DNA of 64,000 nt, taken from sequence record SRR31156797_601; one strand, 5' to 3'. This document shows positions 40,380 to 61,094 of the stretch, in pieces. Position 1 is the first letter of the stretch. The number at the start of each line of letters is the position of its first letter. Below the pieces are notes generated by a model. It was not told the origin of the DNA and did not search any database. It saw only the letters and a list, made by a program, of their open reading frames with translations. Position numbers and translations under genes: made by a program.

Positions 40380-40410
40380 GTAGAACAATTTCGAAGGGAA
40401 TATAATAGTA

Positions 40411-43927: not shown

Positions 43928-43971
43928 TTGACAAGTATAGTATTGGTGTGTAAAATGACAACGTAGGACAT
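43928..43971 (+). promoter_or_regulatory. Sigma-A promoter with an overlapping LacI-type operator
   Basis: TTGACA 43928-43933, 17-bp spacer, TAAAAT 43951-43956; AAATGACAACGTAGGACAT at 43953-43971 matches the site at 45012. Confidence 0.7.
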
Positions 43972-43992: not shown

Positions 43993-44994
43993 TTGAAAGA
44001 TATAACTATGAAGGATATAGCCCAAATGTGTAATGTTTCTACGAAAACAGTTTCACGCGTAATTAACGGCAGTAATGAAGTAAAACCTGAAACAAAAGAA
44101 AAAATAGAGAAAGTAATGCAGGAATATGGATATCAGGCAAATCTTTTGGCTAGAGGGTTAAGGAACAAGAAGACCAATACGATTATTGTTTTTATTGATA
44201 ACCATAAGGAAAGATACTGGGGTATGTGGCATACAAAAATGCTTTCCAGTTTGTTCAAAGAGGCTAAGAAAAAGGGCTTTAAGATTGTTGTTACCCCATC
44301 CAGTGCAACAGGTCATCTAGATGATGAAACAGATGGATTTCATTTGTTAGCCAGTAAGATGGCAGATGGTGCAATTTTGCTGGATAATGCTACCCACGAT
44401 ATTCGATTCGATTTTTTAAATAAACGTAAGATACCATATGTTCTTGTAGGGCAAGTGGACAATAAAGACATAACATGGGTTGATGCCGACAACTATGGAA
44501 TAGGAAAAGTCGGATGTGAGTATCTTGTTAATAAGGGGTACAAGAAAATATGTCTGCTGTTGGGTCAGCAGCAATATCACGTTAATGAACTCAGAGCACA
44601 GGGGTTTGAAGACGTTGCAAAAGTAAAAAATATTGATTACAGAATATATTATAATGCAGACAGCATGGAAGTCGTACACGATACACTTATAAAGGTAAGA
44701 GATGAGTTTGACTATGATGCTTTGTATATATCTGGTTCAGAAAGAGCCGTTGGTGCATACAGAGCACTAAATGAAATGAATTTGAAGATACCTGATGATG
44801 TTGCAGTGCTTGGAATAGATAATTTATCAATTTGTAGGTATTTATATCCAGCGATGAGTGTTGTGGATCAGCACTGCGATATATTCACTAAGCATATTAT
44901 TGAGAAATTGGATAAATTGATTAAAGGCGGAGATATAACTGGTGAAAATCATGTATTGGTTGAAAACACAATTTGGGAGAGAGAATCAACATAA
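43993..44994 (+). CDS. LacI-family transcriptional repressor
   Basis: TMKDIAQMCNVSTKTVSRVIN, ANLLARGL, IPDDVAVLGID. Confidence 0.95.
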   Translation: MKDITMKDIAQMCNVSTKTVSRVINGSNEVKPETKEKIEKVMQEYGYQANLLARGLRNKKTNTIIVFIDNHKERYWGMWHTKMLSSLFKEAKKKGFKIVVTPSSATGHLDDETDGFHLLASKMADGAILLDNATHDIRFDFLNKRKIPYVLVGQVDNKDITWVDADNYGIGKVGCEYLVNKGYKKICLLLGQQQYHVNELRAQGFEDVAKVKNIDYRIYYNADSMEVVHDTLIKVRDEFDYDALYISGSERAVGAYRALNEMNLKIPDDVAVLGIDNLSICRYLYPAMSVVDQHCDIFTKHIIEKLDKLIKGGDITGENHVLVENTIWEREST

Positions 44995-45011
44995 GATGTT
45001 TTTTTATCATA

Positions 45012-45032
45012 AAATGTCAACGTCGGACATTT
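45012..45032. promoter_or_regulatory. LacI-type operator upstream of the phosphorylase gene
   Basis: Imperfect palindrome AAATGTC-AACGTCG-GACATTT; a second copy lies at 43953. Confidence 0.7.
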
Positions 45033-45060
45033 ACAAGATATGCAATAAAGGATATATTGA

Positions 45061-46728
45061 ATGGAAAATAATGAAGTAATATTGTATATGCTTACTGAGC
45101 TTTATGGGGATAAGTCATTAAGTGTATATAAAAAAATACAAGAGTTAGTAAAGAGATATTCTGGAATAAAAAATGAAAAGGTCAAATGGGTAGACGAGAA
45201 GGATGTCATGATAATAACCTATGCAGACAGTATCATATCAAGTGATGCGTCAGGCATAAAGAACCTTTCTCAATTATTTGCTAAATATATAAAGAAAAGC
45301 GTTTCAGCAATTCATCTGCTTCCGTTCTTTGAATACTCATCTGATGACGGGTTCTCTGTAATTGATTATAAGAAGCCTCACAGCAAGGCAGGCACATGGG
45401 ATGAGATAGATGAACTATCTGATAACTACGATTTGATGTTTGATGCCGTAATAAACCATATATCAAGGCAAAGTGAATGGTTTCAGGGATACTTAGCAGG
45501 TAATGAAATTTACCAGAATTACTTCATTGAATGTGACCCTGGTTTAGATTATTCATCTGTAACCAGACCAAGAGCACTTCCTCTTTTGACAGAGGTAGAA
45601 ACAAAAAGTGGTAAAAAACATGTATGGACGACATTCAGTGATGACCAGATTGATTTGAACTATGAAAATCCAGACGTACTGATAGATATACTTGATGTTC
45701 TGCTGTATTATGTGAAACACGGAGCTATGTATCTAAGGCTGGACGCAATAGGATTCTTGTGGAAAGAGATCGGCACTAGTTGTATGCATCATGAAAAAAC
45801 ACATCTGTGTATAAGACTGATGAGAAAAGTAATTGAGCAGCTAAACAAATCTGTTGTAATAATAACAGAGACTAATACACCGCATGAAGAAAATATTAGC
45901 TATTTCGGCAGTAAATACGATGAAGCGCATATGGTTTATCAGTTTCCGCTCCCCCCATTAACTGCTCATGCTTTTCTTTCAGGTGATAGCACAACGCTGC
46001 TGAAATGGTGCGAGAGTCTAGGACATATAGATGAGAAGGCAACTTACTTTAACTTCCTTGCATCCCATGACGGCATAGGCTTAAGACCTATTGAGGGAAT
46101 ATTAGACAATAATGAAATAGACATGATAGTAGAATCTGTTATTAATCACGGCGGACGTGTATCATATAGAAATATGCCTGACGGCAGAAAAAAACCATAC
46201 GAATTAAATATTTCGTATCTGAGTTTAGTCAGTGATAAAGATGATAGTAATGATATAAAGGCAAAAAAGTTCATGGCTTCTCAAGCAGTTCTGTTGTCTG
46301 TGGTAGGCATACCGGGAATATATATACATAGCCTTTTAGGCAGTGAAAATGATATTGAAGGTATGCTCACTTCAGGCATAAACAGAAGGATAAATAGAGA
46401 GAAACTGGATAAAGACACCCTGTTTGATGAGCTTAATGACAAAAATTCTTTAAGAGCTAAGGTGCTTGGTAAATACATAAAATTGCTGAATATTAGAAAG
46501 ACGAACAGTGCATTTTCACCTAGTTCTAGGCAGATTAGTGAATATATTGACCAAAGGGTATTTGCTATAACTAGAGTTAATGAGAAGACTAAAGAAAAAA
46601 TTAGGGTAAGAATAAATATTTCTAATGACAATGTAGAGATTCATGATATTGGAAGGGATATAATATCTGGTCAAAATATAAAAGATGATTACATAATGAA
46701 ATCATATGAGGTTTTGTGGGTAGAATAA
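45061..46728 (+). CDS. ycjM: GH13_18 phosphorylase, most likely glucosylglycerate phosphorylase (YcjM-type)
   Basis: SSDDGFSVIDY, V.RPRALPLLT, WTTFS.DQIDLN, RLDAIGFLWK, ITETN, LASHDGIG, KPYELN. Confidence 0.82.
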   Translation: MENNEVILYMLTELYGDKSLSVYKKIQELVKRYSGIKNEKVKWVDEKDVMIITYADSIISSDASGIKNLSQLFAKYIKKSVSAIHLLPFFEYSSDDGFSVIDYKKPHSKAGTWDEIDELSDNYDLMFDAVINHISRQSEWFQGYLAGNEIYQNYFIECDPGLDYSSVTRPRALPLLTEVETKSGKKHVWTTFSDDQIDLNYENPDVLIDILDVLLYYVKHGAMYLRLDAIGFLWKEIGTSCMHHEKTHLCIRLMRKVIEQLNKSVVIITETNTPHEENISYFGSKYDEAHMVYQFPLPPLTAHAFLSGDSTTLLKWCESLGHIDEKATYFNFLASHDGIGLRPIEGILDNNEIDMIVESVINHGGRVSYRNMPDGRKKPYELNISYLSLVSDKDDSNDIKAKKFMASQAVLLSVVGIPGIYIHSLLGSENDIEGMLTSGINRRINREKLDKDTLFDELNDKNSLRAKVLGKYIKLLNIRKTNSAFSPSSRQISEYIDQRVFAITRVNEKTKEKIRVRINISNDNVEIHDIGRDIISGQNIKDDYIMKSYEVLWVE

Positions 46729-46785
46729 ATTTGGTCTAAAGGATTAAAAATCCTTAATATATAGGCATATTTAAGAGGAGGAAAA

Positions 46786-48096
46786 ATGAAAAAACTGACT
46801 TTAATTATTTTGGTTGTAACTTTGTTTGCAACAATGACACTTGGCTGTCAGCAGGAAGTAGCTGAGACTGAAGTGGCTGAACCAGAAGCAACTGAGGCAC
46901 CAGCAGAAACTGAAGCACCTGCAGAAGAACCTTCAGAACCTGTAACTATTAAAGTAACATCAGGACTATGGTCAAAACCAGAAGAACAACAATACGTAAG
47001 GGAAGAAGCTCTTACAGCTTTTGAAGAAGAAACAGGTATTACTGTAGAACTAGAAGTTGTAGAGAACATTCAGGACATGATGGAATCTCAAAAAGCATCA
47101 GGCGAATGGACTTCAGACGTAGTTATTACTCATAGTGGTGATATGACAAAGTATATCTCAAACGGTTATGTTCAAAGCTTAAACAGCGTACTTGAAGGCA
47201 TGGATATTACTATACTCCCAGCATTCAATGAATCAACAAGTGCAGACGGCGAAACATATTATATCCCAATTTCAGCAGACGTTTATCTGGTAATTGCAAA
47301 TACTAAGGCATTAGACTATTTACCAGAAGGTGTTGATCTGAACTCTATTACATGGGAACAATACAAAGATTGGGCTATTGCAATGGCAGAAGGCGAAGGA
47401 ACAGCAAAAACAACTATGCCTGCAATGACAGTAAAATCTATGTGCTATCAAGTCGGCGGTATGGGATTATCATACGGTGCAGACTTTGCAGAAATCGACT
47501 CAGACGCAATGAAGGAAGTATGGGGACTAGTAGGCGAAATGATAGCAGCAGATGCTATTGTTGAAACATCATTCTCATATGGTGACCCAGCTGACTTGAT
47601 GAAAGCTGAAGAAGCTTGGTTATCATTCTATCACATGGGACCGGTTGGTCAGATTTATGCATCAGCACCAGCTCAATTTACAATTGCACCAGCTCCAGCA
47701 GGTCCAGAAGGCAACGGCTCAATAGCAGGCGCTTGGGGTATGGGTATTACAGCAGGAACAGAAAACCTAGAAGCAGCACAAGCATTTATCGAGTACATGG
47801 CAGATCCTGACATACTATACAAAGTTACTCAAGGTATCGGCGGAACAATTCCTCCAGTACAAGAGGTTGTAGATGTATTAGGTTCAGAGCCAGCAGACGA
47901 AGTTGTTAAAATGGGTCTGATTACTCTTGAAGCAGGTATTCCACACGGTGTACCATCAGCAGACTATACTGACTGGAGTGCAGTAAAGACTGTTTATGAC
48001 GAAACTTTCCAAAAACTATGGGACGACAGCGGTGTAGTGGATAATGATTTCTTAGCAGAACAACAAGCTGCTCTTGAAGCATTATTAGTAGAATAA
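46786..48096 (+). CDS. CUT1 ABC substrate-binding lipoprotein
   Basis: Lipobox TLGC, acidic Ala/Glu/Pro linker, YYIPISADVY, PAPAGP, GSIAGAWG. Confidence 0.9.
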   Translation: MKKLTLIILVVTLFATMTLGCQQEVAETEVAEPEATEAPAETEAPAEEPSEPVTIKVTSGLWSKPEEQQYVREEALTAFEEETGITVELEVVENIQDMMESQKASGEWTSDVVITHSGDMTKYISNGYVQSLNSVLEGMDITILPAFNESTSADGETYYIPISADVYLVIANTKALDYLPEGVDLNSITWEQYKDWAIAMAEGEGTAKTTMPAMTVKSMCYQVGGMGLSYGADFAEIDSDAMKEVWGLVGEMIAADAIVETSFSYGDPADLMKAEEAWLSFYHMGPVGQIYASAPAQFTIAPAPAGPEGNGSIAGAWGMGITAGTENLEAAQAFIEYMADPDILYKVTQGIGGTIPPVQEVVDVLGSEPADEVVKMGLITLEAGIPHGVPSADYTDWSAVKTVYDETFQKLWDDSGVVDNDFLAEQQAALEALLVE

Positions 48097-48106
48097 TAAT
48101 ACACAC

Positions 48107-48138
48107 AAAAGAGAGCATACCTTAATGCTCTCTTTTTT
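48107..48138 (+). terminator. Stem-loop after the SBP gene
   Basis: AAAAGAGAGCAT...ATGCTCTCTTTT inverted repeat. Confidence 0.7.
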
Positions 48139-48185
48139 ACTTAGTGGAGTTTTGTACTTCGCACATAAAGAAGAATGAGGTGTTT

Positions 48186-49046
48186 ATGAAAAAATTTGTA
48201 AAAAAATGGTTTCCATATCTCTTGCTTACACCTGCATTAATATATTATATTTTGTTTTGGATTCGTCCAGTAATAAAAGCCTTCGCTGAAAGCTTTACCG
48301 ATTTAGACGGGAAATTTTCTCTTGTTAATTATATCGATATTATTAAAGATCCTGTTTTTAAGGAAGCTCTGGTAAACTCTATTGGATTTGCAGCAGTTTC
48401 TGTAATTTTACAGTTTATATTTGCATTTATGCTAGCGCTATTACTTAATAAGAAATTCAAAGGGGTAAACCTACTACTGTTTATTGCTTTGATTCCAATG
48501 GCTGTACCGCCAACTGCTGTTGCAGTGTTGTGGAAAACAGGATTTTCTTCATTTGGATGGGTAAATAACCTACTGTACAGAATGGATATTATTACAGAAC
48601 CAATCAAATGGCTGACCGTGGAAGGTGCCAATGCACTGGGATTCTTGGTATTGATAGATACATGGACGGTACTGCCCAGCGTAATGATAATATTATTAGC
48701 AGGACTTCAGAACCTTAATAAAGAATATGAAGAAGCGGCTTGCGTATTTGGTGCAAGCAGATGGCAGGTGATAAAGGATGTTACAATTCCTATTTTAAAG
48801 CCTACAATTGTAACAGCAATAATTCTGCGTATGATAGCTGCAATACAGGTATGGATGATATCTGTAATGATGTTTGGCTACGGCAGAGTTCCTTTCCTTG
48901 TAGAAAGAATTGCTTATTACACGGATGTAGTTTCAGAAATCGATACAAGCTACAAGACTTCGTTAGCATATTCAGTATTGGTTACAGTGATTGTTTTAAT
49001 CTCTGCAACACTGTATCTGAGAGTTAATAACAGGAAAGGAAATTAA
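48186..49046 (+). CDS. CUT1 ABC permease (MalF-type)
   Basis: PYLLLTPA, IPMAVPP, LAGLQ, EEAACVFGA. Start moved to ATG 48186. Confidence 0.9.
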   Translation: MKKFVKKWFPYLLLTPALIYYILFWIRPVIKAFAESFTDLDGKFSLVNYIDIIKDPVFKEALVNSIGFAAVSVILQFIFAFMLALLLNKKFKGVNLLLFIALIPMAVPPTAVAVLWKTGFSSFGWVNNLLYRMDIITEPIKWLTVEGANALGFLVLIDTWTVLPSVMIILLAGLQNLNKEYEEAACVFGASRWQVIKDVTIPILKPTIVTAIILRMIAAIQVWMISVMMFGYGRVPFLVERIAYYTDVVSEIDTSYKTSLAYSVLVTVIVLISATLYLRVNNRKGN

Positions 49047-49050
49047 TGAT

Positions 49051-50091
49051 ATGAATGCAAGAAAAGCAATTGGCAAAGCAGTATTTTATCTGATAATTGC
49101 AACAGTTTTATTTGCGGTATTAGTACCATTTCTCTCTTTCCTTGTAACTGCATTCTATTCCGCTGACGAAGTATATAATATCCCCAGATCGTTTTTACCA
49201 AAGGGGAGCTACGATATCATGGTAGAATACAAAGATGATATGTACTATTTGTCAGTTTATGAAGATGGACTGGAAGATTATGAACTAAAGATATATTCAG
49301 GCAAATCAGAGAAACTAAGAAGATACCTGCAAACAACATATTCAGTAAGATTGACAGATGAGGAACTACTAGCTGATTTTGAACCTGCAAAGAACGGTGA
49401 GACGATATATTTAAACTATAGGAAAGATTTACTATATAATTTCAAAACATTTTTTTCAATAACAAATAATGCAGATAAATCCGTTATGAATTCAATTATT
49501 GCAGCTGGATGGACAATATTGATTTCGCTGACTATTGGCTCAATGGCTGGATATTCTTTGGCAAGGTATAGAATAAAATTCAAAAAGCAGATAAATATGT
49601 CGCTGCTTTTAGTTAGAATGTTTCCAATGGTAGCAATAGCAATTCCTATGCTGGTAATCTTAATAAAAATGGGATTTACAAATACTATGATAGGATTGGC
49701 AATTGTATACTCCGTAGGTAACATAGCATTGACGGCATGGATTACAAATAGCATTTTCAAGGGCATTGGTGTTGAATTGGAAGAAGCATCATTGGTATTT
49801 GGTGCAAACAGAATACAGACATTTTTTAAGATTACACTACCACTAGCCTTCCCGGGGCTTGTTGCGTGTAGTATGTATGCCTTTTTAGCAGCATGGAATG
49901 ACTCTATAACCGCATTGATATTGGCAAATAATAATCCTACATTGTCATTGCTGATTTACAAAGCAATCGGCATGAGCGGAGAAATACAATTGGCAGCAGC
50001 GGGTGCAGTAATATTAATAACTCCTGCGCTAATATTTACATTCATTATTAAAAATTACATCAACCAATTGTGGGGAGATGTTAAATTCTAA
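49051..50091 (+). CDS. CUT1 ABC permease (MalG-type) with an enlarged extracytoplasmic loop
   Basis: AGYSLAR, RMFP, ELEEASLVFGA, ITLPLA.PG; acidic insert of about 80 aa after TM1. Confidence 0.9.
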   Translation: MNARKAIGKAVFYLIIATVLFAVLVPFLSFLVTAFYSADEVYNIPRSFLPKGSYDIMVEYKDDMYYLSVYEDGLEDYELKIYSGKSEKLRRYLQTTYSVRLTDEELLADFEPAKNGETIYLNYRKDLLYNFKTFFSITNNADKSVMNSIIAAGWTILISLTIGSMAGYSLARYRIKFKKQINMSLLLVRMFPMVAIAIPMLVILIKMGFTNTMIGLAIVYSVGNIALTAWITNSIFKGIGVELEEASLVFGANRIQTFFKITLPLAFPGLVACSMYAFLAAWNDSITALILANNNPTLSLLIYKAIGMSGEIQLAAAGAVILITPALIFTFIIKNYINQLWGDVKF

Positions 50092-50109
50092 GCAGAGGGA
50101 GGACACAAA

Positions 50110-51201
50110 GTGGAATTTTTGAAATTAGAAAATCTAACGAAGAAATATCAAAATAAAATATTAGCAGTAGATAAGATGGACCTTGAAATAAAAAAAGGTG
50201 AATTTCTGGTATTGCTTGGACCATCAGGCTGCGGTAAGACGACAACCATGAGGATGATTGCAGGACTTGAGGATGTAACTGAAGGAGACATATTGTTAGA
50301 AGGTCAGTCTATAAAGGAACTGCCTCCAAAGGACAGGGACGTCTCGATGATATTTCAATCATATGCAGTTTGGCCCCATATGACTGTCAGGGAGAATATA
50401 GAATATCCTCTAAAACTAAAGAAAATACCTAAAGAAGAAAGAAAAAAAAGAGTAGAAGAAACAGCGGAAATGGCGGATATTACGAAATATCTTGACAGAC
50501 TTCCAGCCAATTTATCTGGTGGTCAGAGACAGAGAGTAGCAGTAGCTAGAGCAATGGGGGTGAAGCCTAAGCTTTTCTTAATGGATGAGCCTTTGTCAAA
50601 TCTGGATGCAAAACTTCGTGTTTCTATGAGAACTGACCTAAAAAAAGCACACGAGCAGCTAGGCTCAACCACAATATTTGTTACTCATGACCAATCTGAA
50701 GCTATGTCGCTAGCTGATAGAATCGTTGTAATGAATATGGGTGTTATTGAACAGATAGGTACACCTAATGAGATATATCACGATTGTGAAACTATGTTTG
50801 TTGCCAATTTCATCGGTTCACCACCAACGAATTTCTTGGATGTTGAAGTAGAAGCTAAAGACAATAAAGTTTTCTTAAAGCATGAGTTGTTTAGTTATGA
50901 AGTTAAATCATCAATATCTGACAAGTTAATTGCCTATGACGGCAAGAAAATCGCATTTGGCATCAGACCAGAGAATTTTGTTATAGCTGATGATGATAAT
51001 GAACAGATATTATTTACAAGAAAAATATTGTTTGTGGAACCTCAGGGCTCTCATACAATCATTGTTGTAAAAGTAGATGACAAACAAATTAAGCTTTTAA
51101 CAAGCGATGTTCTAACGTTTGAAGTGGGTCAGGAGATAAAAATCGCTGTAAATAAAAAATATATGTTATTTGATTTAGAAACAAAGAATCGAATCAAATA
51201 A
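50110..51201 (+). CDS. Sugar ABC ATP-binding protein (MalK/MsmX-like)
   Basis: GPSGCGKTT, LSGGQRQRVA, LMDEPLSNLDAKLR, VTHDQ, C-terminal TOBE domain. Confidence 0.95.
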   Translation: MEFLKLENLTKKYQNKILAVDKMDLEIKKGEFLVLLGPSGCGKTTTMRMIAGLEDVTEGDILLEGQSIKELPPKDRDVSMIFQSYAVWPHMTVRENIEYPLKLKKIPKEERKKRVEETAEMADITKYLDRLPANLSGGQRQRVAVARAMGVKPKLFLMDEPLSNLDAKLRVSMRTDLKKAHEQLGSTTIFVTHDQSEAMSLADRIVVMNMGVIEQIGTPNEIYHDCETMFVANFIGSPPTNFLDVEVEAKDNKVFLKHELFSYEVKSSISDKLIAYDGKKIAFGIRPENFVIADDDNEQILFTRKILFVEPQGSHTIIVVKVDDKQIKLLTSDVLTFEVGQEIKIAVNKKYMLFDLETKNRIK

Positions 51202-51214
51202 GAAAGGTTATATT

Positions 51215-52561
51215 ATGAATATTGCGTTGACGCACTTTAGAGTAGGGGAAACCGATGGTGTATCTCTTGAAATGGATAAGTGGAAACAAGTACTTGAGAG
51301 AATGGGGCATAATGTATGCTACATAGCTGGTACATCTGGTCCGCAGGAAGCATTTATTATAGATGAAATGGACTATCGGGGTAAAAAAGATGCAGAGCTG
51401 AACAAAGCTTGTTTTGAGAACGAAGGTCTGATCTCTGATGAAGAATTAAAAATTGAAATTGAATCATTTGCTAAAATAATAGAAGATCAATTTGTAAAGA
51501 TAATTGAGGACAATGGTATTGATATGGTTATTGCAAACAATCTGTTGTCTTTAGGAAGAAGCCCTCATATTGCAATGGCTTTGACTAATGCTGCTATTAA
51601 AACGAAGGTAAAAGTAATCGGCCATCATCATGATTTTTACTGGGAGAGAGATTATTTTGATAATCCTAAGAATGAATATGTACGATATTTGCTGGATGAA
51701 TATTTTCCGCCAAAGCAACTGGGTGATATGAAGCATGCTGTTATAAATAAGTTAGCAAAAAGGGATTTGTTGGACAAAAAGGGTAAAGAGAGCTTAGTAG
51801 TGCCTAATGTGTTTGAGTTTAATAATGATTTATGGGTAGAAGATGAATATAACAGAACATACAAACAGGATTTGGGCATCGGCGATAATGAAGTAGTGTT
51901 CCTGCAGGCTACAAGAGTAACCAATAGGAAAGCTATTGAGCTGGCGGTGGACTTGGTGGCTATGCTTGATACTCCAAAATTTAGAAATAAACTACTAGGT
52001 AAAACGCTATATAATGGTAAGATTTTTGACGAAAACACAAAATTGACACTTGCAATGATTGGTTTGCATGAAGGCGGCGATAATTACGAGGAGAGACTTA
52101 TTAATTACGCTAAGCACAAAAATGTGAATCTGATTGTTAAACCCGAATTAGTAGACCATGGCAGAAAGATACAAGAAGATGGAACAAAAGTGTATGCCTT
52201 GTGGGATGCTTATGTATACTGTGATTTGATTACTTATCCAAGTATATATGAAGGATGGGGCAATCAGTTTTTAGAAGGGGTTTTTGCTAAAAAGCCACAG
52301 ATTGCATTTGAATACAGGGTGTTTAAAAGCGATATAAAAGATTTTAATTTTGACTATATTACTTTGGGCCAAACCTATACAATTGGCGAAAATAACTTGG
52401 CAAAAGTTAAAAACGAAGTACTTGAAAAGGCAGCGGATGATTGTATCGCGTATTTGTGTGATAAGCAAAAATATTATGACTGTGTTGACAGAAATTTTGA
52501 GATTGGGAAAGAGAATCTGTCGCTGGAGGCGTTAGAAAAACTAGTCAAAACTTTAGTATGA
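51215..52561 (+). CDS. GT4 glycosyltransferase, mannosylglucosylglycerate synthase (MggS)-like
   Basis: IAL.HFR.G.TDGVSLEM.KW..VL..MGH, NNLLSLG, HHHDFYWER, VVPNV, LQATRV..RKAIELA, YPS.YEGWGNQFLE. These match the Thermotogales MggS pattern as I recall it. Confidence 0.75.
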   Translation: MNIALTHFRVGETDGVSLEMDKWKQVLERMGHNVCYIAGTSGPQEAFIIDEMDYRGKKDAELNKACFENEGLISDEELKIEIESFAKIIEDQFVKIIEDNGIDMVIANNLLSLGRSPHIAMALTNAAIKTKVKVIGHHHDFYWERDYFDNPKNEYVRYLLDEYFPPKQLGDMKHAVINKLAKRDLLDKKGKESLVVPNVFEFNNDLWVEDEYNRTYKQDLGIGDNEVVFLQATRVTNRKAIELAVDLVAMLDTPKFRNKLLGKTLYNGKIFDENTKLTLAMIGLHEGGDNYEERLINYAKHKNVNLIVKPELVDHGRKIQEDGTKVYALWDAYVYCDLITYPSIYEGWGNQFLEGVFAKKPQIAFEYRVFKSDIKDFNFDYITLGQTYTIGENNLAKVKNEVLEKAADDCIAYLCDKQKYYDCVDRNFEIGKENLSLEALEKLVKTLV

Positions 52562-52580
52562 TTTCTAACATGGAGTAAGT

Positions 52581-53519
52581 ATGAGTATAACATTAACGAG
52601 AATTGTTCAGGAGCCTATTTTAGAGGCGAATGAGAGCAATGCTTGGGAAAAAGCGAGCTGCTTTAATGCAGGAGCTATAAAAAAAGATGGCGTGGTTCAT
52701 ATGTTTTACAGAGCGACAAATACCAGCTGCAACGGAAGAGAAAGCAGCGACTACATGAATTATATTGGTCATGCAGTAAGTACAGATGGTATTAACTTTG
52801 AACGTGATAATGATTACGTTATTGGACCAGAAGAAGGAACTCAATGGCAAAGGGGCTGCGAAGACCCCAGAGTTATGAAGCTGGAAGACAAATATTATAT
52901 GCTTTACACTGGATATGCAGCAAGATTTCCAGGAGATTTTCGTATATGCATGTCTTCCAGTGATGATTTGGTGAACTGGGAACAGCACGGAATGATATTG
53001 GATGAGAGCAACAAGGACGCAGCATTCTTCTCCAAAAAAATTAACGGTGAATATGTTTTGCTGCATAGAAGATCACCCAATATATGTATAGGTTATTCAA
53101 AGGACTTAAAAGAATTTTATAATCATAAGGTGTTGGCTAAAAGGGACGAAAATAATAATTGGGAAGATTATAAAATAGGAATTGCCGGACCACCAATTGA
53201 GACTGAAAAGGGATATATTCTGATATATCATGGAGTCAGTAAAGCAAAGAAAGATTACGGTATAAGGGGTGAATATGCCCAGTATTCTCTTGGAATTATG
53301 CTGCTTGACAAAGATGACCCCAGTAAAATAGTGTACAGACAAAAGGAACCAATTTTGGTACCTAAACTTGATTGGGAGCTAAATGGTCACGTGCCAAATG
53401 TGGTTTTTAGCTGTGGTCAGGTCATAATGGGTAAAGACTTGTACGTTTACTATGCAGGTGCAGACCAAAGAATGGGCGTTGCCAAAACATCTATGAGCAG
53501 TATAATGGATTTATTTTGA
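52581..53519 (+). CDS. GH130 beta-mannoside phosphorylase-like protein
   Basis: FNAGA, MFYRA, RGCEDPR, NKDAAFF, LLHRR, KIG..GPP, YHGV, VPNVVFSCG, YYAGAD. Confidence 0.88.
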   Translation: MSITLTRIVQEPILEANESNAWEKASCFNAGAIKKDGVVHMFYRATNTSCNGRESSDYMNYIGHAVSTDGINFERDNDYVIGPEEGTQWQRGCEDPRVMKLEDKYYMLYTGYAARFPGDFRICMSSSDDLVNWEQHGMILDESNKDAAFFSKKINGEYVLLHRRSPNICIGYSKDLKEFYNHKVLAKRDENNNWEDYKIGIAGPPIETEKGYILIYHGVSKAKKDYGIRGEYAQYSLGIMLLDKDDPSKIVYRQKEPILVPKLDWELNGHVPNVVFSCGQVIMGKDLYVYYAGADQRMGVAKTSMSSIMDLF

Positions 53520-53520
53520 T

Positions 53521-55086
53521 ATGAAAACAAGCGAGAAATGGTTTAAAACAGAAATAATTTACGAAATATACCCTGCAAGCTTTACGGAAGAAGGATTGCA
53601 GGGTGTAATTAAGAAACTAGAATATATAAAAAGTTTGGGTGTAGATGCAATATGGCTTTGCCCAATTTTTGATTCTCCTTTTATGGACAGCGGATATGAT
53701 ATATCTGATTATTACAATGTGAATGAGAAATTCGGGACAATGTCTGACTTTGATGAATTAATTGAAAAAGCTCATAAAACAGATCTGAGAATCATTCTGG
53801 ACATTGCATTAAACCACACAAGCAGTGAACATCCGTGGTTTAAGGATGCATGCAAAAGCAAAGACAGTATTTATAGAGATTATTATATTTTTAGAGATAG
53901 TAAAAATAATAGTTATCCAAATAATTGGATTAGCTCCAAAACACTGAAAACCACATGGACTTATAATGAAGCGACGGATGATTATTACATGCATATCTAT
54001 ACAAAATATCAACCGGATTTAAATTGGCGAAATGAAAAGGTACGAGATGAAATTTATAAAATATTGGAGTTTTGGATAGAGAAAAATGTAGACGGCTTTC
54101 GATTTGACGTTATAAACAAGATAGCAAAACCAAGTGAGCCAGAAAATGTGGAATCTCAAAGAGTATATGCAGATTATCTATATGAAAATCATGCGGATTC
54201 TCATGTATTTATAAGAGAAATGCGAAATAATGTATTTGATAAGCATAAGGGAGTACTGATGCTTGGTCAAACAAGTGGTATCAGTATTGATGAAGGTATA
54301 AAGTATGGCAGCAGAGACAATCAAGAGCTGGATTTGTTTCTACAGTTTGATCATATGGACATTGATGGCAAAGATAAAGTTATATTGCAAGATTCTATAA
54401 TGAAATGGCAGAATATTGACGAAAACGGTGCATGGCCTGTTATATTTATGGGGAGTCATGATTCGGGTAGGATGGTTAGTAAATTTGCAACATCCAAAAG
54501 TGAATATATTTATACCGCTGCAAAAATGCTTTGTGTACTTCAGTTATGCCTAAAAGGCACTCAGATTATTTATATGGGGGATGAGCTAGCTGTTTCTAAT
54601 GTAAGAAATACTCATATCGACGAATTTGTTGATATCAGGAGTAAAGATATATATTATGCAGGAATTAAAGCTGGGCAATGTGAAGAGCAGATAATAGATA
54701 ATCTCAATCAAATAACTCGAGATAATGCAAGGCAGCAGATACCCTGGGCAAAGGCACAGGATATGATGGGGGATAATGAAAGTGTACTATCGTTTTATAG
54801 AAAGATAATTGCGTGGCGTAAGGACGAAGAAGCAGTATTGTATGGCAGGACTTACAGCATTTTCGATGAGGATGATAATATATTTGCTTATCAAAGAGTG
54901 TATAAAGATACTATATTAACTATACTTGCAAATATATCCGAAAAAGATGTAATATTAGATAGCAGTATATATGGAGAACCAATTATATCAAATTATTCAA
55001 ATATACATTCTGGTAGAATGGCTCCATATGAGGTGCGAATATATAAAAAAGCAGGTAGAGTATGTCATTTGATACTAAAAAAATGA
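53521..55086 (+). CDS. GH13 alpha-glucosidase-like protein with Gln at the acid/base position
   Basis: IYEIYP.SF, DSGYDISDY, NHTS, QPDLN, GFRFDVIN and SHD are present; conserved region III reads LMLGQT (CAA 54268-54270) instead of xxGE. Confidence 0.8.
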   Translation: MKTSEKWFKTEIIYEIYPASFTEEGLQGVIKKLEYIKSLGVDAIWLCPIFDSPFMDSGYDISDYYNVNEKFGTMSDFDELIEKAHKTDLRIILDIALNHTSSEHPWFKDACKSKDSIYRDYYIFRDSKNNSYPNNWISSKTLKTTWTYNEATDDYYMHIYTKYQPDLNWRNEKVRDEIYKILEFWIEKNVDGFRFDVINKIAKPSEPENVESQRVYADYLYENHADSHVFIREMRNNVFDKHKGVLMLGQTSGISIDEGIKYGSRDNQELDLFLQFDHMDIDGKDKVILQDSIMKWQNIDENGAWPVIFMGSHDSGRMVSKFATSKSEYIYTAAKMLCVLQLCLKGTQIIYMGDELAVSNVRNTHIDEFVDIRSKDIYYAGIKAGQCEEQIIDNLNQITRDNARQQIPWAKAQDMMGDNESVLSFYRKIIAWRKDEEAVLYGRTYSIFDEDDNIFAYQRVYKDTILTILANISEKDVILDSSIYGEPIISNYSNIHSGRMAPYEVRIYKKAGRVCHLILKK

Positions 55087-56240
55087 TAATTGCAATTATT
55101 ATTGTTGCTATACTGTTTATTCTCTTTTTGGGTTATGCGTTTAACAATATCCAGAAAGTCGAGTTAGAAATTAGATTAATTGATATCTCTGTACTCGATG
55201 CGGAATTGGAAACAAGTGCGAATGAAATAGTTGACAAATACAATGTGGAATATGTGGATAACTTATCATTGAACACAATTGATATGAACATTCTGCTGGT
55301 TAATCACCAAACAAAAAGTGCATGTTTAGTAAAAGGGCAAGAGATATTTGCGGTCGATTATGGGAAACTAGATAAAAGTATAATATATTGCAATAGTTAT
55401 GTTGCTCTTGCTGATGGTCAAAAGACACTTATCATTAATTGTGATGAAATATTAGGGAATCCTATCGCAAGGACTATTTCCAATGCATATCATTATGAAT
55501 ATACAAATACCAGCAACTTAAGCCCAGAATCTGTAGAATGCTTCCAAACAATTTCGCAGAATGAATCAATAAGTTTTTATAAATATCAGATGATTGAGAG
55601 TGCAAAAGAGTCTCTCTTTAATGACGAAAAGCTGGATAATTTTTATTATTTTTATGACCAATGGGCATATTTTGAAGGATTGAATGGGTATCAGGAAGTA
55701 ATAAATTATGATTACTATGATGGTTTCAAGGCTTATGTTTATTCAAAGGCGATGGAAGATATAGATGATAGCTTTGTCTTGGAAGAGTATATTGATAGTT
55801 TTAAAAATGCACATGGAATATATTCAAAAGATAGTGAAAATGCCGTGATGGGTTTGCTTTGGTGCTTATTAATGGAAAAGCAAGGACGCAATGTAATAAT
55901 TGATGAAGACAGAATAACAGATATGTACAAAATGCTTCTGGAAGGTGTACCTCAAGGGCAGGTTGACGATAGTGATATGCGGAGTGAATACCATGAGAAA
56001 TTTATTCATTACATAGAGAATATTGATGAAATCATAAGTGAATATAAAGCTGATATGAATGATATAGAGCCAATAATGCCTGTGAAAACTGCTGAGACAT
56101 ATAAGGGTACTATTAAAGTTAAAGATAATCATTATATTTATATCAATTACAGAGTAAGAACTGATGATAATACCATATTACAGCAAGGGTATTTAACGGC
56201 TGAAGTATCACCATACAATATAAAGCTATATTTTAAATAA
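55062..56240 (+). CDS. Hypothetical acidic protein with an N-terminal membrane anchor
   Basis: 392-aa ORF; KK followed by a hydrophobic helix; overlaps the GH13 gene by 25 bp; no family recognised. Confidence 0.7.
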   Translation: MSFDTKKMIIAIIIVAILFILFLGYAFNNIQKVELEIRLIDISVLDAELETSANEIVDKYNVEYVDNLSLNTIDMNILLVNHQTKSACLVKGQEIFAVDYGKLDKSIIYCNSYVALADGQKTLIINCDEILGNPIARTISNAYHYEYTNTSNLSPESVECFQTISQNESISFYKYQMIESAKESLFNDEKLDNFYYFYDQWAYFEGLNGYQEVINYDYYDGFKAYVYSKAMEDIDDSFVLEEYIDSFKNAHGIYSKDSENAVMGLLWCLLMEKQGRNVIIDEDRITDMYKMLLEGVPQGQVDDSDMRSEYHEKFIHYIENIDEIISEYKADMNDIEPIMPVKTAETYKGTIKVKDNHYIYINYRVRTDDNTILQQGYLTAEVSPYNIKLYFK

Positions 56241-56248
56241 TGTAATAC

Positions 56249-56300
56249 TTGAAACATTGAAAACACTCAAAGTATAATTTGCTCGTAAAACCCGGTTTAC
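56249..56300 (+). promoter_or_regulatory. Sigma-A-like promoter with a downstream operator-like palindrome for glycerate kinase
   Basis: TTGAAA 56249-56254, 18-bp spacer, TATAAT 56273-56278; GTAAAACCCGGTTTAC at 56285-56300. Confidence 0.5.
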
Positions 56301-56385
56301 AGATTATTAATTAGCCGTGTTGGAGAAAAACATATACTGATTTCAGTTTACTTTTATAGAACGATATTAATAAGGAGAAATGCAC

Positions 56386-57522
56386 ATGAAGATAATTGTT
56401 GCACCAGATTCTTTCAAAGGCAGTATATCAGCAAAGAAGGCATGTGATGCTATTGAAAGAGGAATAATCAGCGTTTTGCCTAATGCTGAGGTTGTTAAGC
56501 TTCCCATTGCTGACGGCGGTGAAGGTACAGTTGAATCATTCATTACAGCAACTTCATGCAAAACTATAAATGTCTCTGTAGCAGGACCTCTTGGACTAAC
56601 TACAAATGCAGAATTTGCTGTTCTTGATGATAATACAGCTATAATAGAAATGGCAATGGCTTCAGGACTGACTTTAATTCCTGAAGAAAAGAGAAATCCG
56701 ATGCAAACAACTTCATATGGTACAGGAGAATTAATAAAAGCGGCTCTAGACCAGGGGTGCAGGAAACTGATTGTTGGACTTGGAGGAAGTGCCACAAATG
56801 ATGGCGGCATGGGGCTTGCACAAGCACTAGGCTATTCGTTTAAGGATTCTGATGGAAGAGAATTAGGATTTGGCGGCGGTGAAATCGATGAACTCTACAC
56901 AATAGATTGTTCTAATCGGGATAAAAGACTTGATGACTGTGAAGTTATTGCTGCATGTGATGTGAAGAATATTTTGTGTGGTAAGGAAGGTGCATCATAC
57001 GTTTTTGGTCCTCAAAAGGGGGCAACTCAAGAATCGGTTAAGATTTTGGATGATAATTTGAAACACTATGCAGAGATAATAAAAAAGGATATAAATCTGG
57101 ATATTTGTGAAGTCCCTGGAGCAGGAGCAGCCGGGGGGCTTGGAGCTGGACTTGTAGCTTTTTGCAATGCAAGTATTGTATCTGGGATTGATACTGTCTT
57201 GGATGCAATAGGATTTGATGATTATATGGAAAGTGCTGATTTAGTTATTACTGGAGAAGGGAAAATAGATGTTCAATCTTTTTATGGCAAAGTACCGATT
57301 GGTGTTGCTAAGCGAGCAAAGGCATATCAAGTGCCAGTAATTGCTATTGGGGGGACTATTGATGATAGCATAGATAACATATATGAACATGGTATTACTG
57401 CTGCCTTCAGCATTGTTGACAAACCAATGACTCTAGAGTGTGCTATATCAAATACTGAAGAGCTGCTAACTTGTGCTGCAGATAGGATTTTTCGGTTAAT
57501 CAATATCTATTTATCTAAATAA
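56386..57522 (+). CDS. glxK: Glycerate kinase (GlxK/GarK family)
   Basis: MKII.APDSFKGS, PIADGGEGT, GLGGSATNDGG, FGPQKGA, GAGAAGGLG, ITGEG.ID.QS..GK. Confidence 0.95.
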   Translation: MKIIVAPDSFKGSISAKKACDAIERGIISVLPNAEVVKLPIADGGEGTVESFITATSCKTINVSVAGPLGLTTNAEFAVLDDNTAIIEMAMASGLTLIPEEKRNPMQTTSYGTGELIKAALDQGCRKLIVGLGGSATNDGGMGLAQALGYSFKDSDGRELGFGGGEIDELYTIDCSNRDKRLDDCEVIAACDVKNILCGKEGASYVFGPQKGATQESVKILDDNLKHYAEIIKKDINLDICEVPGAGAAGGLGAGLVAFCNASIVSGIDTVLDAIGFDDYMESADLVITGEGKIDVQSFYGKVPIGVAKRAKAYQVPVIAIGGTIDDSIDNIYEHGITAAFSIVDKPMTLECAISNTEELLTCAADRIFRLINIYLSK

Positions 57523-57679: not shown

Positions 57680-58711
57680 CTAACTTTTGGGGATTGATTT
57701 TTTTTGATTTAATAAACGTACAGATTCTCTAACTATAAGCTTAGTATGAGTATACAATCTCTGTGCAGGAGTATCTGGATTTTTGAGCTTATCTGCCATC
57801 TGGTTATATGCTTTTACTGCAAATTCCTCTTTGTTAATGTCAATAGAAGTGATTTTTGGATCTGTAGACTCTGAAATATCTGTATTATCAAAGCTTATTA
57901 TTGATACATCGTCAGGAACTTTGATATTATTCTGAGCTAATTTCTGCATCAAATAGTATGCAGCCATATCGCAGTGGCATACAAAAGCAGTTGGCATATT
58001 TTCAGGCAAATCGATATCCAACGTGTACAAATTGGTAATTGGGTCATCGTTACTTATTACAATATCAGAATCAAAAGAAATATCATATGCATCCAGAGCT
58101 TTTAAATAACCAAAATAACGATCAGAGATACTGGAAGTATTATTTTTGTCACCTAAAAATCCAATTCGTCTATGTCCATTCTCCAAAAGATAGTTTGTTG
58201 CTTTATATCCAATATAGAAATTGTCAGTTACTACACAATCCAGATTTAAAATAGGCTTGTAAAAGTCAATAAGAACTATAGGAATATCTAGTGTGATTAG
58301 CTGATTAACATATGCTTTCGAAAATTCACCGGCAACGAATATACCATCGCATGGAGTACTAATAAGGGCTTGTGGTATAGACTGCTGTTTTTCAGATTGT
58401 GAATTAATCACATAAAGGTTTAGGTTTAGTGATTTAGCAGTACAGATTTTATTTAGATTATAAAAGATTGTTGAATAGAAATTATCGGTTTCCAGAAAGA
58501 ATTTTTTTGGTACAACGAATGCAAATCTACTGTAGCTATGAGCCTTCAAAGAGTTTGGATTAACATAACCAAGTTTATTTGCTGTGTCTATTATTTTATT
58601 GCGAAGTTCTTGACTGACACCAGGCTGATTATTCAAAGCTTTGTGTACCGTGACTTTTGATATATTTAACATATTAGCAATATACTGCATTGATGTTTTT
58701 TCATTCTTCAT
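57680..58711 (-). CDS. LacI-family transcriptional regulator
   Basis: SMQYIANMLNISKVTVHKALN HTH, GHRRIGF, PTAFVC.CD, VPDDVSIISFD. The start may be ATG 58711 or TTG 58729. Confidence 0.92.
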   Translation of the reverse strand: MKNEKTSMQYIANMLNISKVTVHKALNNQPGVSQELRNKIIDTANKLGYVNPNSLKAHSYSRFAFVVPKKFFLETDNFYSTIFYNLNKICTAKSLNLNLYVINSQSEKQQSIPQALISTPCDGIFVAGEFSKAYVNQLITLDIPIVLIDFYKPILNLDCVVTDNFYIGYKATNYLLENGHRRIGFLGDKNNTSSISDRYFGYLKALDAYDISFDSDIVISNDDPITNLYTLDIDLPENMPTAFVCHCDMAAYYLMQKLAQNNIKVPDDVSIISFDNTDISESTDPKITSIDINKEEFAVKAYNQMADKLKNPDTPAQRLYTHTKLIVRESVRLLNQKKSIPKS

Positions 58712-58951
58712 TGTAGTCTGTTTCTCCAATTTGTATTGTTGTTACCTAACAAAAACAGTATATCAGATTAAAACACATAAATCAAATAAAAATTGCCAGT
58801 TTATATAAATAATTGTTAAGAAGTCCTGTATAACTAATTATTAATGGAAATCGGTGAACTTATTATTGTTAAGTTTATTTAAGTAATAATCACATGTTTA
58901 GTATTAACACCAATAAATGAGTTATAAAATTGGATAAATTGCATAATAATG

Positions 58952-59026
58952 TTGACAAACTCAGAAAACTGTTGTAGAATAACGTTAGCTAACAAAAGGG
59001 TAACACAAACAAGCGTGTTTGGTAAC
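58952..59026 (+). promoter_or_regulatory. Sigma-A promoter with GTTnnnTAAC operators
   Basis: TTGACA 58952-58957, 17-bp spacer, TAGAAT 58975-58980; GTTAGCTAAC 58984-58993 and GTTTGGTAAC 59017-59026; a further copy GTTACCTAAC at 58741-58750. Confidence 0.7.
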
Positions 59027-59129
59027 GATATTTAAATAGATTCAAATTCGACATAATACTATTGTATTGACAACAGTAATAATCAATGTCAAAAGTATTT
59101 ATTTGGTAATCAGAAAGGACGAATGGAGA

Positions 59130-60083
59130 ATGGTAAAGAATACTAAGATAAAAAAACAAAAAGAAACATCCTTTTTTCAGGAGTTGATTAGAAACAAGGT
59201 ACTCTACATGATGGTTCTTCCAGGAGTGCTGTACTTTCTGATTTTTAATTATTCACCCATAATTGGTATCTATTACGCTTTTGTTGATTATAAACCTATG
59301 GCTGGTTTATATGGATTTGGAAGTGAATTTGTAGGCTTAGAGAATTTCAAATTTTTCTTTGCTTCAGGCATGTGGATAAAGATTACTATCAACACACTAT
59401 TTCTTAATGCATTGTTTATTATAACAGGCTTATTCACACAAATGTTTATGGCAATTCTGCTAAATGAGGTAGGCAATAAGATGTTTAAGAAACTATCTCA
59501 GTCATTTATGTTTTTACCCAATTTCTTATCATGGACGGTTGTTTCTGTGTTTGCAGCTGCTTTATTTGCTACAGATACAGGACTAATAAATAATATTATT
59601 GTTAAATTAGGCGGTGAATCTATTTCCTTTTATCAGGAAGCAAAATACTGGCCGTTTCTGCTTGTGATTTTGAAACTATGGAAAGGTGTTGGATATGGAA
59701 CAGTTATTTATCTAGCAACTATTTCATCTTTAGGACAGGAGATGTATGAAGCTGCGGAGATTGATGGTGCTAACCGAATGCAGCAGGTCTGGTACATTAC
59801 CGTACCTATGCTGAGAAACACAACTATAGTATTGATGATATTGTCAGTGGGCAGCATATTCTTCGGTGATTTTGGAATGATTTATGCTCTGTTAGGAGAC
59901 AATCCGCTGGTTAGACCAACTACTGATGTTATAGATACTTTTGTGTTTAGGGCATTAAGAGAGCTGAATGATATCGGTATGTCTACTTCCGTTGGATTGC
60001 TACAATCTGTATTAGGCTTAATTATGGCACTTGCGACCAACTTTGTGGCAAAGAGAATAGACGAAAATGCTAAAGTATTTTAA
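59130..60083 (+). CDS. ABC permease (LplB/YteP-type)
   Basis: LY.M.LPG, FVGLENF, LPNFLSW, WKGVGYG..IYLA, YEAAEIDGA, DVIDTFV.R. Start moved to ATG 59130. Confidence 0.92.
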   Translation: MVKNTKIKKQKETSFFQELIRNKVLYMMVLPGVLYFLIFNYSPIIGIYYAFVDYKPMAGLYGFGSEFVGLENFKFFFASGMWIKITINTLFLNALFIITGLFTQMFMAILLNEVGNKMFKKLSQSFMFLPNFLSWTVVSVFAAALFATDTGLINNIIVKLGGESISFYQEAKYWPFLLVILKLWKGVGYGTVIYLATISSLGQEMYEAAEIDGANRMQQVWYITVPMLRNTTIVLMILSVGSIFFGDFGMIYALLGDNPLVRPTTDVIDTFVFRALRELNDIGMSTSVGLLQSVLGLIMALATNFVAKRIDENAKVF

Positions 60084-60111
60084 ATAACATAGGAGAGGAA
60101 GGAAATCTAAT

Positions 60112-61011
60112 ATGAAAAATGCAAAAAGACAATTGGGTGACAGAATATTATTAATTGTGTCCTATGTTATGACAGGTGGATTTGCTATTGCGTGTTTACT
60201 TCCTTTATGGATGGCATTTTGCGCATCATTCACCAATGAATTGACTATTTTAAGTGAAGGATACAAGTTATGGATTCCAGATTTTGATGCTACATCTTAT
60301 AAATTGCTGTTTACTGGTACAGATGTTATGTACAAGGCTTATGGTATAACCATTGCTATGACTGCAGTGGGCACATTGTGTACAGTATTTTTTACTGCAT
60401 TGACAGCTTATCCGTTATCAGTAAAGAAATTAAGATTTGCAGGAGGCATTTCTTTATTTATATATATTACGATGTTGGTTAACGGGGGATTAGTACCAAC
60501 CTACATATTAATAACTAGAGTGCTGCGTATGAAGGATACATTCGCTGTGTTGGTTATCCCAGGTATGCTGCAGGCATTTAATATTTTCCTGATGAAAAAC
60601 TATTTCTCATCCATACCAATATCTTTATCTGAATCAGCAAAGATTGATGGTGCATCTGATTTTACTATTTTTATAAAGATTATTCTTCCATTAGCAAAGC
60701 CTATACTTGCTACCATTGGTCTTTTTGCTGCTATGAATTACTGGAATGAATGGTATAGAGTATTACTATATATTGAAAATCCTGATTTGTATACACTACA
60801 GTTTTTGATTATGAAGATGCAGAAGCAGTTAAACTTCATGACAACCGAAATGGGAGCAAAAGCAATGGAAGCAATGGGTAATGTAATGATACCATCTCTT
60901 GGTATCAGAATGGCAACAGCTATGCTGAGTATTGGACCAATTGTATTACTGTATCCAATACTACAGAAGTATTTTATGAAGGGCATTATGATTGGAGCTG
61001 TAAAAGAGTAG
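60112..61011 (+). CDS. ABC permease (LplC/YtcP-type)
   Basis: AYPLS, NGGLVPTYI, SLSESAKIDGA, YWNEW, YPILQKYF.KG...GAVKE. Confidence 0.92.
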   Translation: MKNAKRQLGDRILLIVSYVMTGGFAIACLLPLWMAFCASFTNELTILSEGYKLWIPDFDATSYKLLFTGTDVMYKAYGITIAMTAVGTLCTVFFTALTAYPLSVKKLRFAGGISLFIYITMLVNGGLVPTYILITRVLRMKDTFAVLVIPGMLQAFNIFLMKNYFSSIPISLSESAKIDGASDFTIFIKIILPLAKPILATIGLFAAMNYWNEWYRVLLYIENPDLYTLQFLIMKMQKQLNFMTTEMGAKAMEAMGNVMIPSLGIRMATAMLSIGPIVLLYPILQKYFMKGIMIGAVKE

Positions 61012-61094
61012 TACATAAATCCTATTCAATTAACGAATTAGTTGATTTATGGGATATGTAAATAAATAGCTAAATGTATATGAAGGAGGCACAA

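Follow-up and report, generated by a model that had tools for sequence, protein, structure and literature searches.

The 64,000 nucleotides of sequence record SRR31156797_601 that were analysed here (the window) contain, between positions 43993 and 57522, a cluster of 11 genes on the + strand that appears to be devoted to the metabolism of glucosylglycerate and its mannosylated derivatives. Glucosylglycerate and mannosylglucosylglycerate are stress protectants whose synthesis is well studied, while to our knowledge their consumption by other microbes after release has been explored far less. With moderate confidence, we view the cluster as a utilisation locus for a glucosylglycerate-based glycoside that includes three unexplained components, and loci of this type offer a testable route by which microbes could consume released protectants of the glucosylglycerate type. 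Published work is cited by PMC number and, throughout, for the part of each paper that was available to us.

In order, the cluster encodes a LacI-family repressor, a phosphorylase of glycoside hydrolase (GH) family GH13_18, the four components of an ATP-binding cassette (ABC) importer, a glycosyltransferase (GT) of family GT4 resembling mannosylglucosylglycerate synthase MggS, a GH130 protein, an atypical GH13 protein, an orphan protein and a glycerate kinase. An earlier reading of the letters alone (the sequence-only reading) had given the same gene list, and it is borne out by the list of open reading frames (ORFs), with identical coordinates, as well as by the family content according to Pfam and NCBIfam. 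Intergenic gaps within the cluster measure at most 66 bp, except for 139 bp upstream of the glycerate kinase gene. The same reading had noted that GpgS, GgS and GH38 are absent, which agrees with our Pfam scan of the 48 window ORFs of at least 150 residues, where no GT2/GT81-type or GH38 domain was found. Pfam matches across the window ORFs further show that the whole window is a run of sugar-utilisation loci.

According to the available text of PMC7178133, glucosylglycerate phosphorylases can be recognised by two features, namely a (T/S)ETN motif and a loop-A Glu for which other clades have Gln. Both are present in the GH13_18 protein of the cluster (45061..46728, + strand): a TETN motif lies in ...VVIITETNTPHE..., with ITETN shared with Escherichia coli YcjM, and the loop-A Glu is found in PYELN, which aligns to PYEIN of YcjM and to IYQIN of sucrose phosphorylase 7qqj. 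The protein is 44% identical to YcjM over its full length (481 bits), and YcjM is annotated as a glucosylglycerate phosphorylase in RefSeq. A PDB search with the same protein gave at most 162 bits against solved sucrose (the best, at 162), sucrose-6F-phosphate and glucosylglycerol phosphorylases, and its top NCBIfam match, sucrose phosphorylase, stays under the cut-off. We predict on this basis that the GH13_18 protein is of the glucosylglycerate phosphorylase type (EC 2.4.1.352). At the other end of the cluster, the glycerate kinase (56380..57522, + strand; PF02595, E 9e-156) matches TIGR00045 over residues 4-376 with 515.4 bits, far above the cut-off of 168.45, while the NCBIfam equivalogs for the 2-kinase and the 3-kinase are not reached. 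An association of glucosylglycerate phosphorylase with glycerate kinase had already been stated in PMC7178133.

The importer set is complete and of CUT1 type, with an extracytoplasmic binding protein (46786..48096; SBP_bac_8, SBP_bac_1), two BPD_transp_1 permeases (48144..49046 and 49051..50091) and a MalK/UgpC-like ATPase (50110..51201; ABC_tran, OB_MalK and TOBE_2), all on the + strand. The N-terminus of the binding protein carries a lipobox (...TLG-C) that is followed by a long, acidic linker rich in Glu, Pro, Ala and Thr, and these two features indicate that this lipoprotein faces outward and serves import. Its nearest solved relative is GacH (5e-10), and a direct comparison found it to be unrelated to E. 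coli YcjN. The ATPase scores 424.9 bits against NF008653, for which the cut-off is 432.

The product of the repressor gene (43993..44994, + strand; PF00356, E 1.8e-17; PF13377, E 1.5e-25) reaches no NCBIfam equivalog cut-off. A promoter-like site, TTGACA-17-TAAAAT (43928..43956, + strand), precedes the gene as a match to the consensus only, and such sites are not more frequent in the region than in shuffled sequence (84 versus a mean of 78). The same holds for a scan for terminators; a predicted hairpin of 12 pairs, without assigned strand, lies between the binding-protein and permease genes (48107..48136). Two candidate operators of 17 bp were found on the + strand. The first, ATGACAACGTAGGACAT (43955..43971), overlaps the -10 hexamer of the promoter-like site, and the second, ATGTCAACGTCGGACAT (45014..45030), with the arms ATGTC and GACAT, lies 31 bp before the start of the GH13_18 gene. 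At up to three mismatches this inverted-arm pattern has only these two copies in 64 kb, both of which match by construction since the pattern was derived from the two sites themselves. Its core also precedes the LacI gene in two related loci (L001 and L083), with a second copy before the GT4 gene in L083, and it occurs in none of the others among the 161 loci searched. Recurrence before orthologous genes in L001 and L083 may thus be taken as independent support for the candidate operators.

The GT4 enzyme encoded at 51215..52561 (+ strand) has a single NCBIfam match, NF041101 or "mannosylglucosylglycerate synthase", to which it aligns from end to end (E 2.4e-129). Its 431.8 bits fall below the equivalog cut-off of 640, as do the scores of all 30 relatives that were tested against this model (232-465 bits). 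No sequence match exists in the PDB, and the structural model (predicted local distance difference test, pLDDT, of 93.4) has a GT-B fold whose Foldseek neighbours belong to GT4 and GT5, with BshA, MshA, PimA and sucrose-phosphate-synthase-like proteins among them (E 1e-13; template-modelling score, TM, of around 0.6; 11-15% identity). GT4 enzymes are defined by an Arg/Lys pair together with an EX7E motif, and in 25 sequences of this family R234, K239, E346-x7-E354 and an HHHDFYWE motif are invariant.

A check of neighbourhood conservation, as the sequence-only reading had proposed, gave no refutation, because the genes do co-occur in other genomes. A scan of one genome per species yielded at least 600 relatives of the GT4 enzyme, from which 80 loci were kept, and homologues of the other cluster genes were sought in these by tblastn, counting hits of E 1e-10 or better over no less than half of the query. 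GH13_18 was found in 41 of the 80 loci, permease 1 in 32, LacI in 31 and glycerate kinase in 9, followed by GH130 with 5 and the atypical GH13 and the orphan with 1 each. In all 41 cases no more than 5 kb separate the GH13_18 homologue from the GT4 gene; the distance is at most 400 bp in 24 cases, and the two genes share a strand in 39. Of the 45 loci with flanks of at least 3 kb to either side, 24 contain such a homologue. The signatures are retained as well, with (T/S)ETN in 39/41 of these partner proteins and the loop-A Glu in 40/41. The two GH13_18 partners with TQTN instead of (T/S)ETN come from Atribacterota/Caldatribacteriota (L006 and L007).

Beyond this pairing, a block formed by the GT4, GH130, atypical GH13 and orphan genes is found again in L001, L174 and L084, and L082 has a part of it, with protein identities of 41-91% (73-91% for the part present in L082), so that the arrangement is not due to chance. 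The cluster is a real, conserved operon, and the atypical GH13 and the membrane orphan belong to its conserved block. In L001 we found the entire gene order of the window, ending in a phosphomannose isomerase and a phosphogluco/phosphomannomutase, and L174 has binding protein, permeases, ATPase, GT4, GH130, atypical GH13 and orphan as in the window. The most extended version, L084, comprises the glycerate kinase GlxK, GH13_18, ABC genes, GT4, GH130, atypical GH13, a DUF1861 gene, an orphan-like gene, GH92, an ORF without family, phosphomannose isomerase and a BadF-type kinase. Smaller versions are LacI-GT4-GH13 in L083 and a minimal unit of CdaR, GlxK, GH13_18, GT4 and importer in L013. Other loci add further functions: CdaR, GlxK, phosphomannose isomerase and GH130 occur in L012, a GH38 alpha-mannosidase in L015 and a 2-hydroxyacid dehydrogenase in L011 and L023, while in L002 a GH13_18-GlxK-GT4 unit is joined to homologues of E. 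coli ycjQRS and ycjT. Carriers of this locus type were found in Clostridia, Halanaerobiales, Atribacterota, Anaerolineae, Spirochaetota, Thermotogota and other groups, and cultured examples are Caloranaerobacter, Halanaerobium and Acidaminobacter. Two carriers, Halanaerobium kushneri and a Clostridia genome, are the hosts of L011 and L023, where the GT4 gene is immediately preceded by ORFs to which Pfam assigns no family (L011 8170-9987, 605 residues; L023 8558-9580, 340 residues).

The GH130 protein (52581..53519, + strand) matches two beta-1,2-mannoside phosphorylases of Thermoanaerobacter over residues 1-308 (PDB 7fip, E 1.3e-91; 9fj8, E 6.3e-91), and its EDPR, HRR and YHG stretches, which we presume to harbour the residues that bind phosphate, are identical to both in the alignment. 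Basic phosphate-binding residues are kept in GH130 phosphorylases, while hydrolases of the family have carboxylates at these positions (PMC4599007). With 391.3 bits the protein stays below the NF052550 equivalog cut-off of 450, so that the family match does not define its acceptor specificity.

Directly after the cluster lies a second sugar locus (57680-63833), which extends towards the end of the window. Its LacI-type gene, on the - strand, is accompanied by genes for two permeases, a large DUF3502-containing binding protein and a DUF1861 protein. This DUF1861 protein, which is GT108-like and lies 5.3 kb downstream, is a homologue of the mannogen mannosyltransferase/phosphorylases of Leishmania (PDB 6q50, E 1.5e-103; also 6q4x and 6q4w). 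Another DUF1861 gene sits inside the conserved block of L084 as a separate gene between the atypical GH13 and the orphan-like gene (10607-11533), and in the 860-residue protein P0036 a GH13 of the atypical kind is fused to a DUF1861 domain. Through fusion and adjacency the two families are thus functionally linked, and the locus type ties bacterial relatives of the Leishmania mannogen enzymes to glucosylglycerate metabolism.

These findings raise the possibility that the locus is mainly one for beta-1,2-mannosides, either for the use of external oligosaccharides or for a mannogen-like reserve primed on (mannosyl)glucosylglycerate, with GH130 and the GT108-like protein as its core and the glucosylglycerate enzymes acting on the primer. 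Besides the DUF1861 links, this would be in line with the closeness of the GH130 protein to the enzymes of Thermoanaerobacter sp. X-514 (Teth514), whose cluster likewise combines import through an ABC transporter with a GT4 alpha-mannosyltransferase (PMC4264767). However, GH130 is present in a minority of the loci with GT4 and phosphorylase (5/80 by tblastn), and the core that is conserved consists of GT4, GH13_18 and importer, which leads us to regard this explanation as improbable.

The atypical GH13 protein (53521..55086, + strand) has 521 residues, and its catalytic domain is related to GH13_31 oligo-1,6-glucosidases and alpha-glucosidases such as 1uok and 9u7v (E 1e-108 to 1e-110). The sequence-only reading had called it atypical, and this description holds for a whole clade of proteins. 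The nucleophile Asp196 (FRFDVIN) and the His-Asp pair (SHD, Asp314) are kept, yet the catalytic triad is incomplete, since the acid/base Glu is absent and Gln250 (LGQTSG) stands in its place; the canonical GH13_31 gene in the neighbourhood, serving as an internal control, has VGET. Among the best 120 homologues, 42 have Gln at this position, every one of the first 37 being of this kind, and 78 have Glu. With Gln kept in 42 out of 42 members found, we rejected the notion of a pseudogene.

Compared with 79 canonical sequences, this "GQT" clade has gained Lys200, four positions past the nucleophile, in 100% of its members. Arg373 is present in 98% where canonical sequences have Glu in 97%, and Arg381 is usual. 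Other clade residues are Ser for Asn before the His-Asp pair and Leu for Phe at position 274, and 23 residues have been lost. The clade has therefore lost one carboxylate and gained two to three basic residues, which may hint that phosphate or a carboxylate is accommodated close to the catalytic centre as an anionic partner. A scan of metagenomes retrieved mostly canonical GH13_31, with GQT at the catalytic position only in L082, L083, L084 and L117; among genomes G001 to G005 a close homologue exists in G003 only, and 2 of 300 sampled genomes of the class have one, the second being that of L174. In our literature search no natural GH13_31 protein without the acid/base residue was described, and the cluster brings to light a GH13 clade in which this residue is naturally missing.

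The orphan gene (55062..56240, + strand) overlaps the GH13 gene by 25 nt and encodes 392 residues with an N-terminal membrane helix and a domain of around 360 residues. It has no Pfam or NCBIfam family, and none of 14 homologues of the same length has a Pfam domain. Its model is of good quality (pLDDT 88.4), but Foldseek matched it to nothing at E 1e-3 or below, and scores of 0.89 in the ESM Atlas were to unnamed clusters. VIA-align reached at best a Z of 6.2, to zincin-type peptidase domains, against the background of 7-8 that is stated for the tool. The peptidase reading was dropped because the sequence has no HExxH; moreover, in neither P0015 nor L001 is the His of its AYHYE helix retained.

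Considering all components, we think it reasonably probable that these genes form a catabolic operon under repressor control, which serves an imported, mannose-decorated glucosylglycerate glycoside of the mannosylglucosylglycerate type, presumably with beta-1,2-linked mannose. A catabolic role is supported by the outward-facing binding protein, the sugar-type repressor, the glycerate kinase and the position in a window of sugar-utilisation loci, and also by the isomerase, mutase, alpha-mannosidases and sugar kinase in related loci. Most likely, the cluster enables a low-GC anaerobe to import and degrade mannose-decorated glucosylglycerate. Under this reading, the LacI-family repressor would bind the two candidate operators of 17 bp, and binding protein, permeases and ATPase, an importer by their families, would take up the glycoside as their putative ligand. 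Judging from its close homologues, GH130 could then remove beta-1,2-mannose as alpha-mannose 1-phosphate. The GT4 enzyme, working in the direction of cleavage, might take the alpha-mannose off glucose by phosphorolysis or by transfer to GDP, which is the weakest step of the scheme. The GH13_18 enzyme, given its signature motifs and its similarity to YcjM, would phosphorolyse glucosylglycerate to glucose 1-phosphate and D-glycerate. Glycerate would be channelled into glycolysis by the kinase, as its family match above the cut-off suggests, and the sugar phosphates could enter glycolysis through phosphomutases and the phosphomannose isomerase that are encoded in relatives' loci, not in this window.

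According to the Pfam contexts, minimal loci such as L013 and L044 have no candidate enzyme for mannose other than GT4, and we favour cleavage over synthesis for this reason. Synthesis is central to an alternative in which the cluster runs an osmolyte cycle: glucosylglycerate would be imported or be made by the reversed phosphorylase from glucose 1-phosphate and glycerate, the GT4 enzyme would mannosylate it with GDP-mannose, and phosphorylases and kinase would recycle the product after stress. Many carriers do come from saline or thermal lineages, such as Halanaerobiales, Sphaerochaeta halotolerans and Thermotogota. Moreover, the available text of PMC3736172 proposes the sucrose-phosphorylase-like enzyme together with MggS as an alternative route in Rhodopirellula baltica. 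When the two R. baltica proteins were produced in recombinant form, both failed in their proposed activities, as the MggS homologue was inactive and the phosphorylase made no glucosylglycerate (PMC3736172). Such a cycle is also at odds with the sugar-type repressor, with an importer that depends on a binding protein and with the glycerate kinase, along with GH92 or GH38 and a sugar kinase in relatives, and it gives neither GH130 nor the Gln-type GH13 a role.

The supply of GDP-mannose is a further difficulty for the osmolyte cycle. No mannose-1-phosphate guanylyltransferase is encoded in the cluster, and neither TIGR01479 nor PF00483 revealed one in G003 or G001, both of which carry the GT4 gene. 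G003 has GlmU and RfbF (glucose-1-phosphate cytidylyltransferase) as its NTP_transferase genes, and G001 has one of the RmlA-long type, one more intact gene whose ORF has the size of GlmU, and broken fragments. TIGR01479 was matched in 2 of 5 locus-carrying genomes, in one of these by the isomerase end only, and NF010496, presumably the model for glucosyl-3-phosphoglycerate synthase, was above its cut-off in none of the five. The assemblies of G003, G004, G005 and G246 are of unknown completeness, and absences there are weak evidence. All in all we consider the osmolyte cycle unlikely. The sequence-only reading had put forward both catabolism of a mannosylated glucosylglycerate and a new compatible-solute system fed by the reversed phosphorylase; the former gained support from the importer, the repressor with its candidate operators, the glycerate kinase and the catabolic genes of relatives, whereas the latter received no positive support.

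Several points nevertheless weigh against a catabolic operon for a mannosylated glucosylglycerate. We know of no beta-1,2-mannosylated glucosylglycerate, and the best PDB relative of the binding protein, an acarbose/maltose binder (5e-10), is too distant to name the ligand. GH130 is found beside GT4 in those five loci only, plus a divergent copy in L012 that was detected by Pfam alone. Since the usual GT4 motifs are kept, the sequence cannot tell the use of a nucleotide sugar from that of phosphate, and GH38 in L015 and GH92 in L084 occur besides GT4, which would therefore not be needed there for the removal of alpha-mannose. An NTP-transferase ORF adjoins the GT4 gene in 2 of 83 loci (L036 and L051), with a third at a distance of 6 kb in L052; this suggests that the GT4 enzymes of L036 and L051 are Leloir synthases and counts in favour of an osmolyte cycle. 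Finally, what biochemistry there is on this GT4 family concerns synthesis, as far as the available text of PMC3736172 goes: the sole assayed member, the homologue of Thermotoga maritima, is a synthase that makes mannosylglucosylglycerate from GDP-mannose and glucosylglycerate, another point in favour of the osmolyte cycle.

If the preferred catabolic reading is carried further, the pathway might be almost wholly phosphorolytic, its substrate being an undescribed mannosylglucosylglycerate that bears additional beta-1,2-linked mannose, or else a short chain resembling mannogen with glucosylglycerate as its primer, and it would then involve two activities that have not been recorded, of GT4 and of GH13. 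We offer this extended version as speculation that has rather low odds of being correct. Were it true, the first new activity would be that of a retaining GT4 alpha-mannoside phosphorylase that converts mannosylglucosylglycerate to mannose 1-phosphate and glucosylglycerate, a counterpart of what YcjT does as kojibiose phosphorylase in E. coli. The second would belong to the GH13_31-derived clade that lost the acid/base Glu and acquired Lys and Arg residues, and whose anionic partner would be phosphate or the carboxylate of glycerate. Every GT4 phosphorylase known by 2021 has trehalose as its substrate (PMC8950772), and our literature search found no description of a GT4 mannoside phosphorylase. 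Phosphorylases of new specificity are sought as tools for glycoside synthesis (PMC8950772), and the locus type calls into question the "synthase" annotation of a widespread GT4 family.

Among known systems, the E. coli K-12 ycjM-ycjW/ompG cluster, with YcjM phosphorylase, YcjNOP-V importer, kojibiose phosphorylase YcjT, beta-phosphoglucomutase YcjU and the LacI-type repressor YcjW, shares a similar design: a gene for a GH13_18 phosphorylase comes first and is followed by a binding-protein importer, there is a LacI-type repressor, and a second enzyme acts on a 1,2-linked hexose, in E. coli on the alpha-1,2-glucoside kojibiose. This second enzyme belongs to GH65 in ycj, whereas here it is GT4 plus GH130, and apart from the unrelated binding proteins the two differ in that the window locus has no YcjQRS-type oxidoreductases and adds glycerate kinase, Gln-type GH13 and orphan. 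Both designs are combined in L002. The mggS-mggB-spasE genes of R. baltica similarly pair an MggS homologue with a sucrose-phosphorylase-like GH13_18 in an operon-like structure (PMC3736172). Unlike R. baltica and the GgS plus MggS route of Petrotoga and Thermotoga, the window locus has no GgS, GpgS, MggA or MggB, but it has importer, repressor, kinase and GH130. The Teth514_1785-1796 cluster of Thermoanaerobacter sp. X-514, for which GDP-mannose salvage has been proposed, resembles the window locus in its ABC importer, GH130 beta-1,2-mannoside phosphorylase and GT4. It differs by two GH130 genes, a mannose-1-phosphate guanylyltransferase and GH5 and, as far as described in the available text, has no GH13_18 and no glycerate kinase (PMC4264767).

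The sequence-only reading had considered the combination of genes undescribed. This does not hold for the pair of MggS and sucrose-phosphorylase-like enzyme, known from R. baltica (PMC3736172), or for phosphorylase with glycerate kinase (PMC7178133), but it does stand for GH130, Gln-type GH13, orphan and importer together, which our literature searches did not find. They also found no locus that unites GH130 with glucosylglycerate enzymes, though the genomic-context figures and supplements of Franceus 2017, Fernandes 2010 and Mukherjee 2018 may show a part of this.

Two further stretches are worth recording. In L002, which derives from Bacilli, the GT4 gene is followed at 11343-17768 by GH4, a Zn-dehydrogenase, a xylose-isomerase-like TIM barrel, a GFO/IDH/MocA oxidoreductase and GH65, a tail that resembles E. 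coli ycjQ-ycjT. Upstream of the cluster in the window itself, at 34387-42087, an AraC-type regulator, a binding protein, two permeases, GH66 and the canonical GH13_31 with VGET form what resembles a locus for the utilisation of dextran or isomalto-oligosaccharides.

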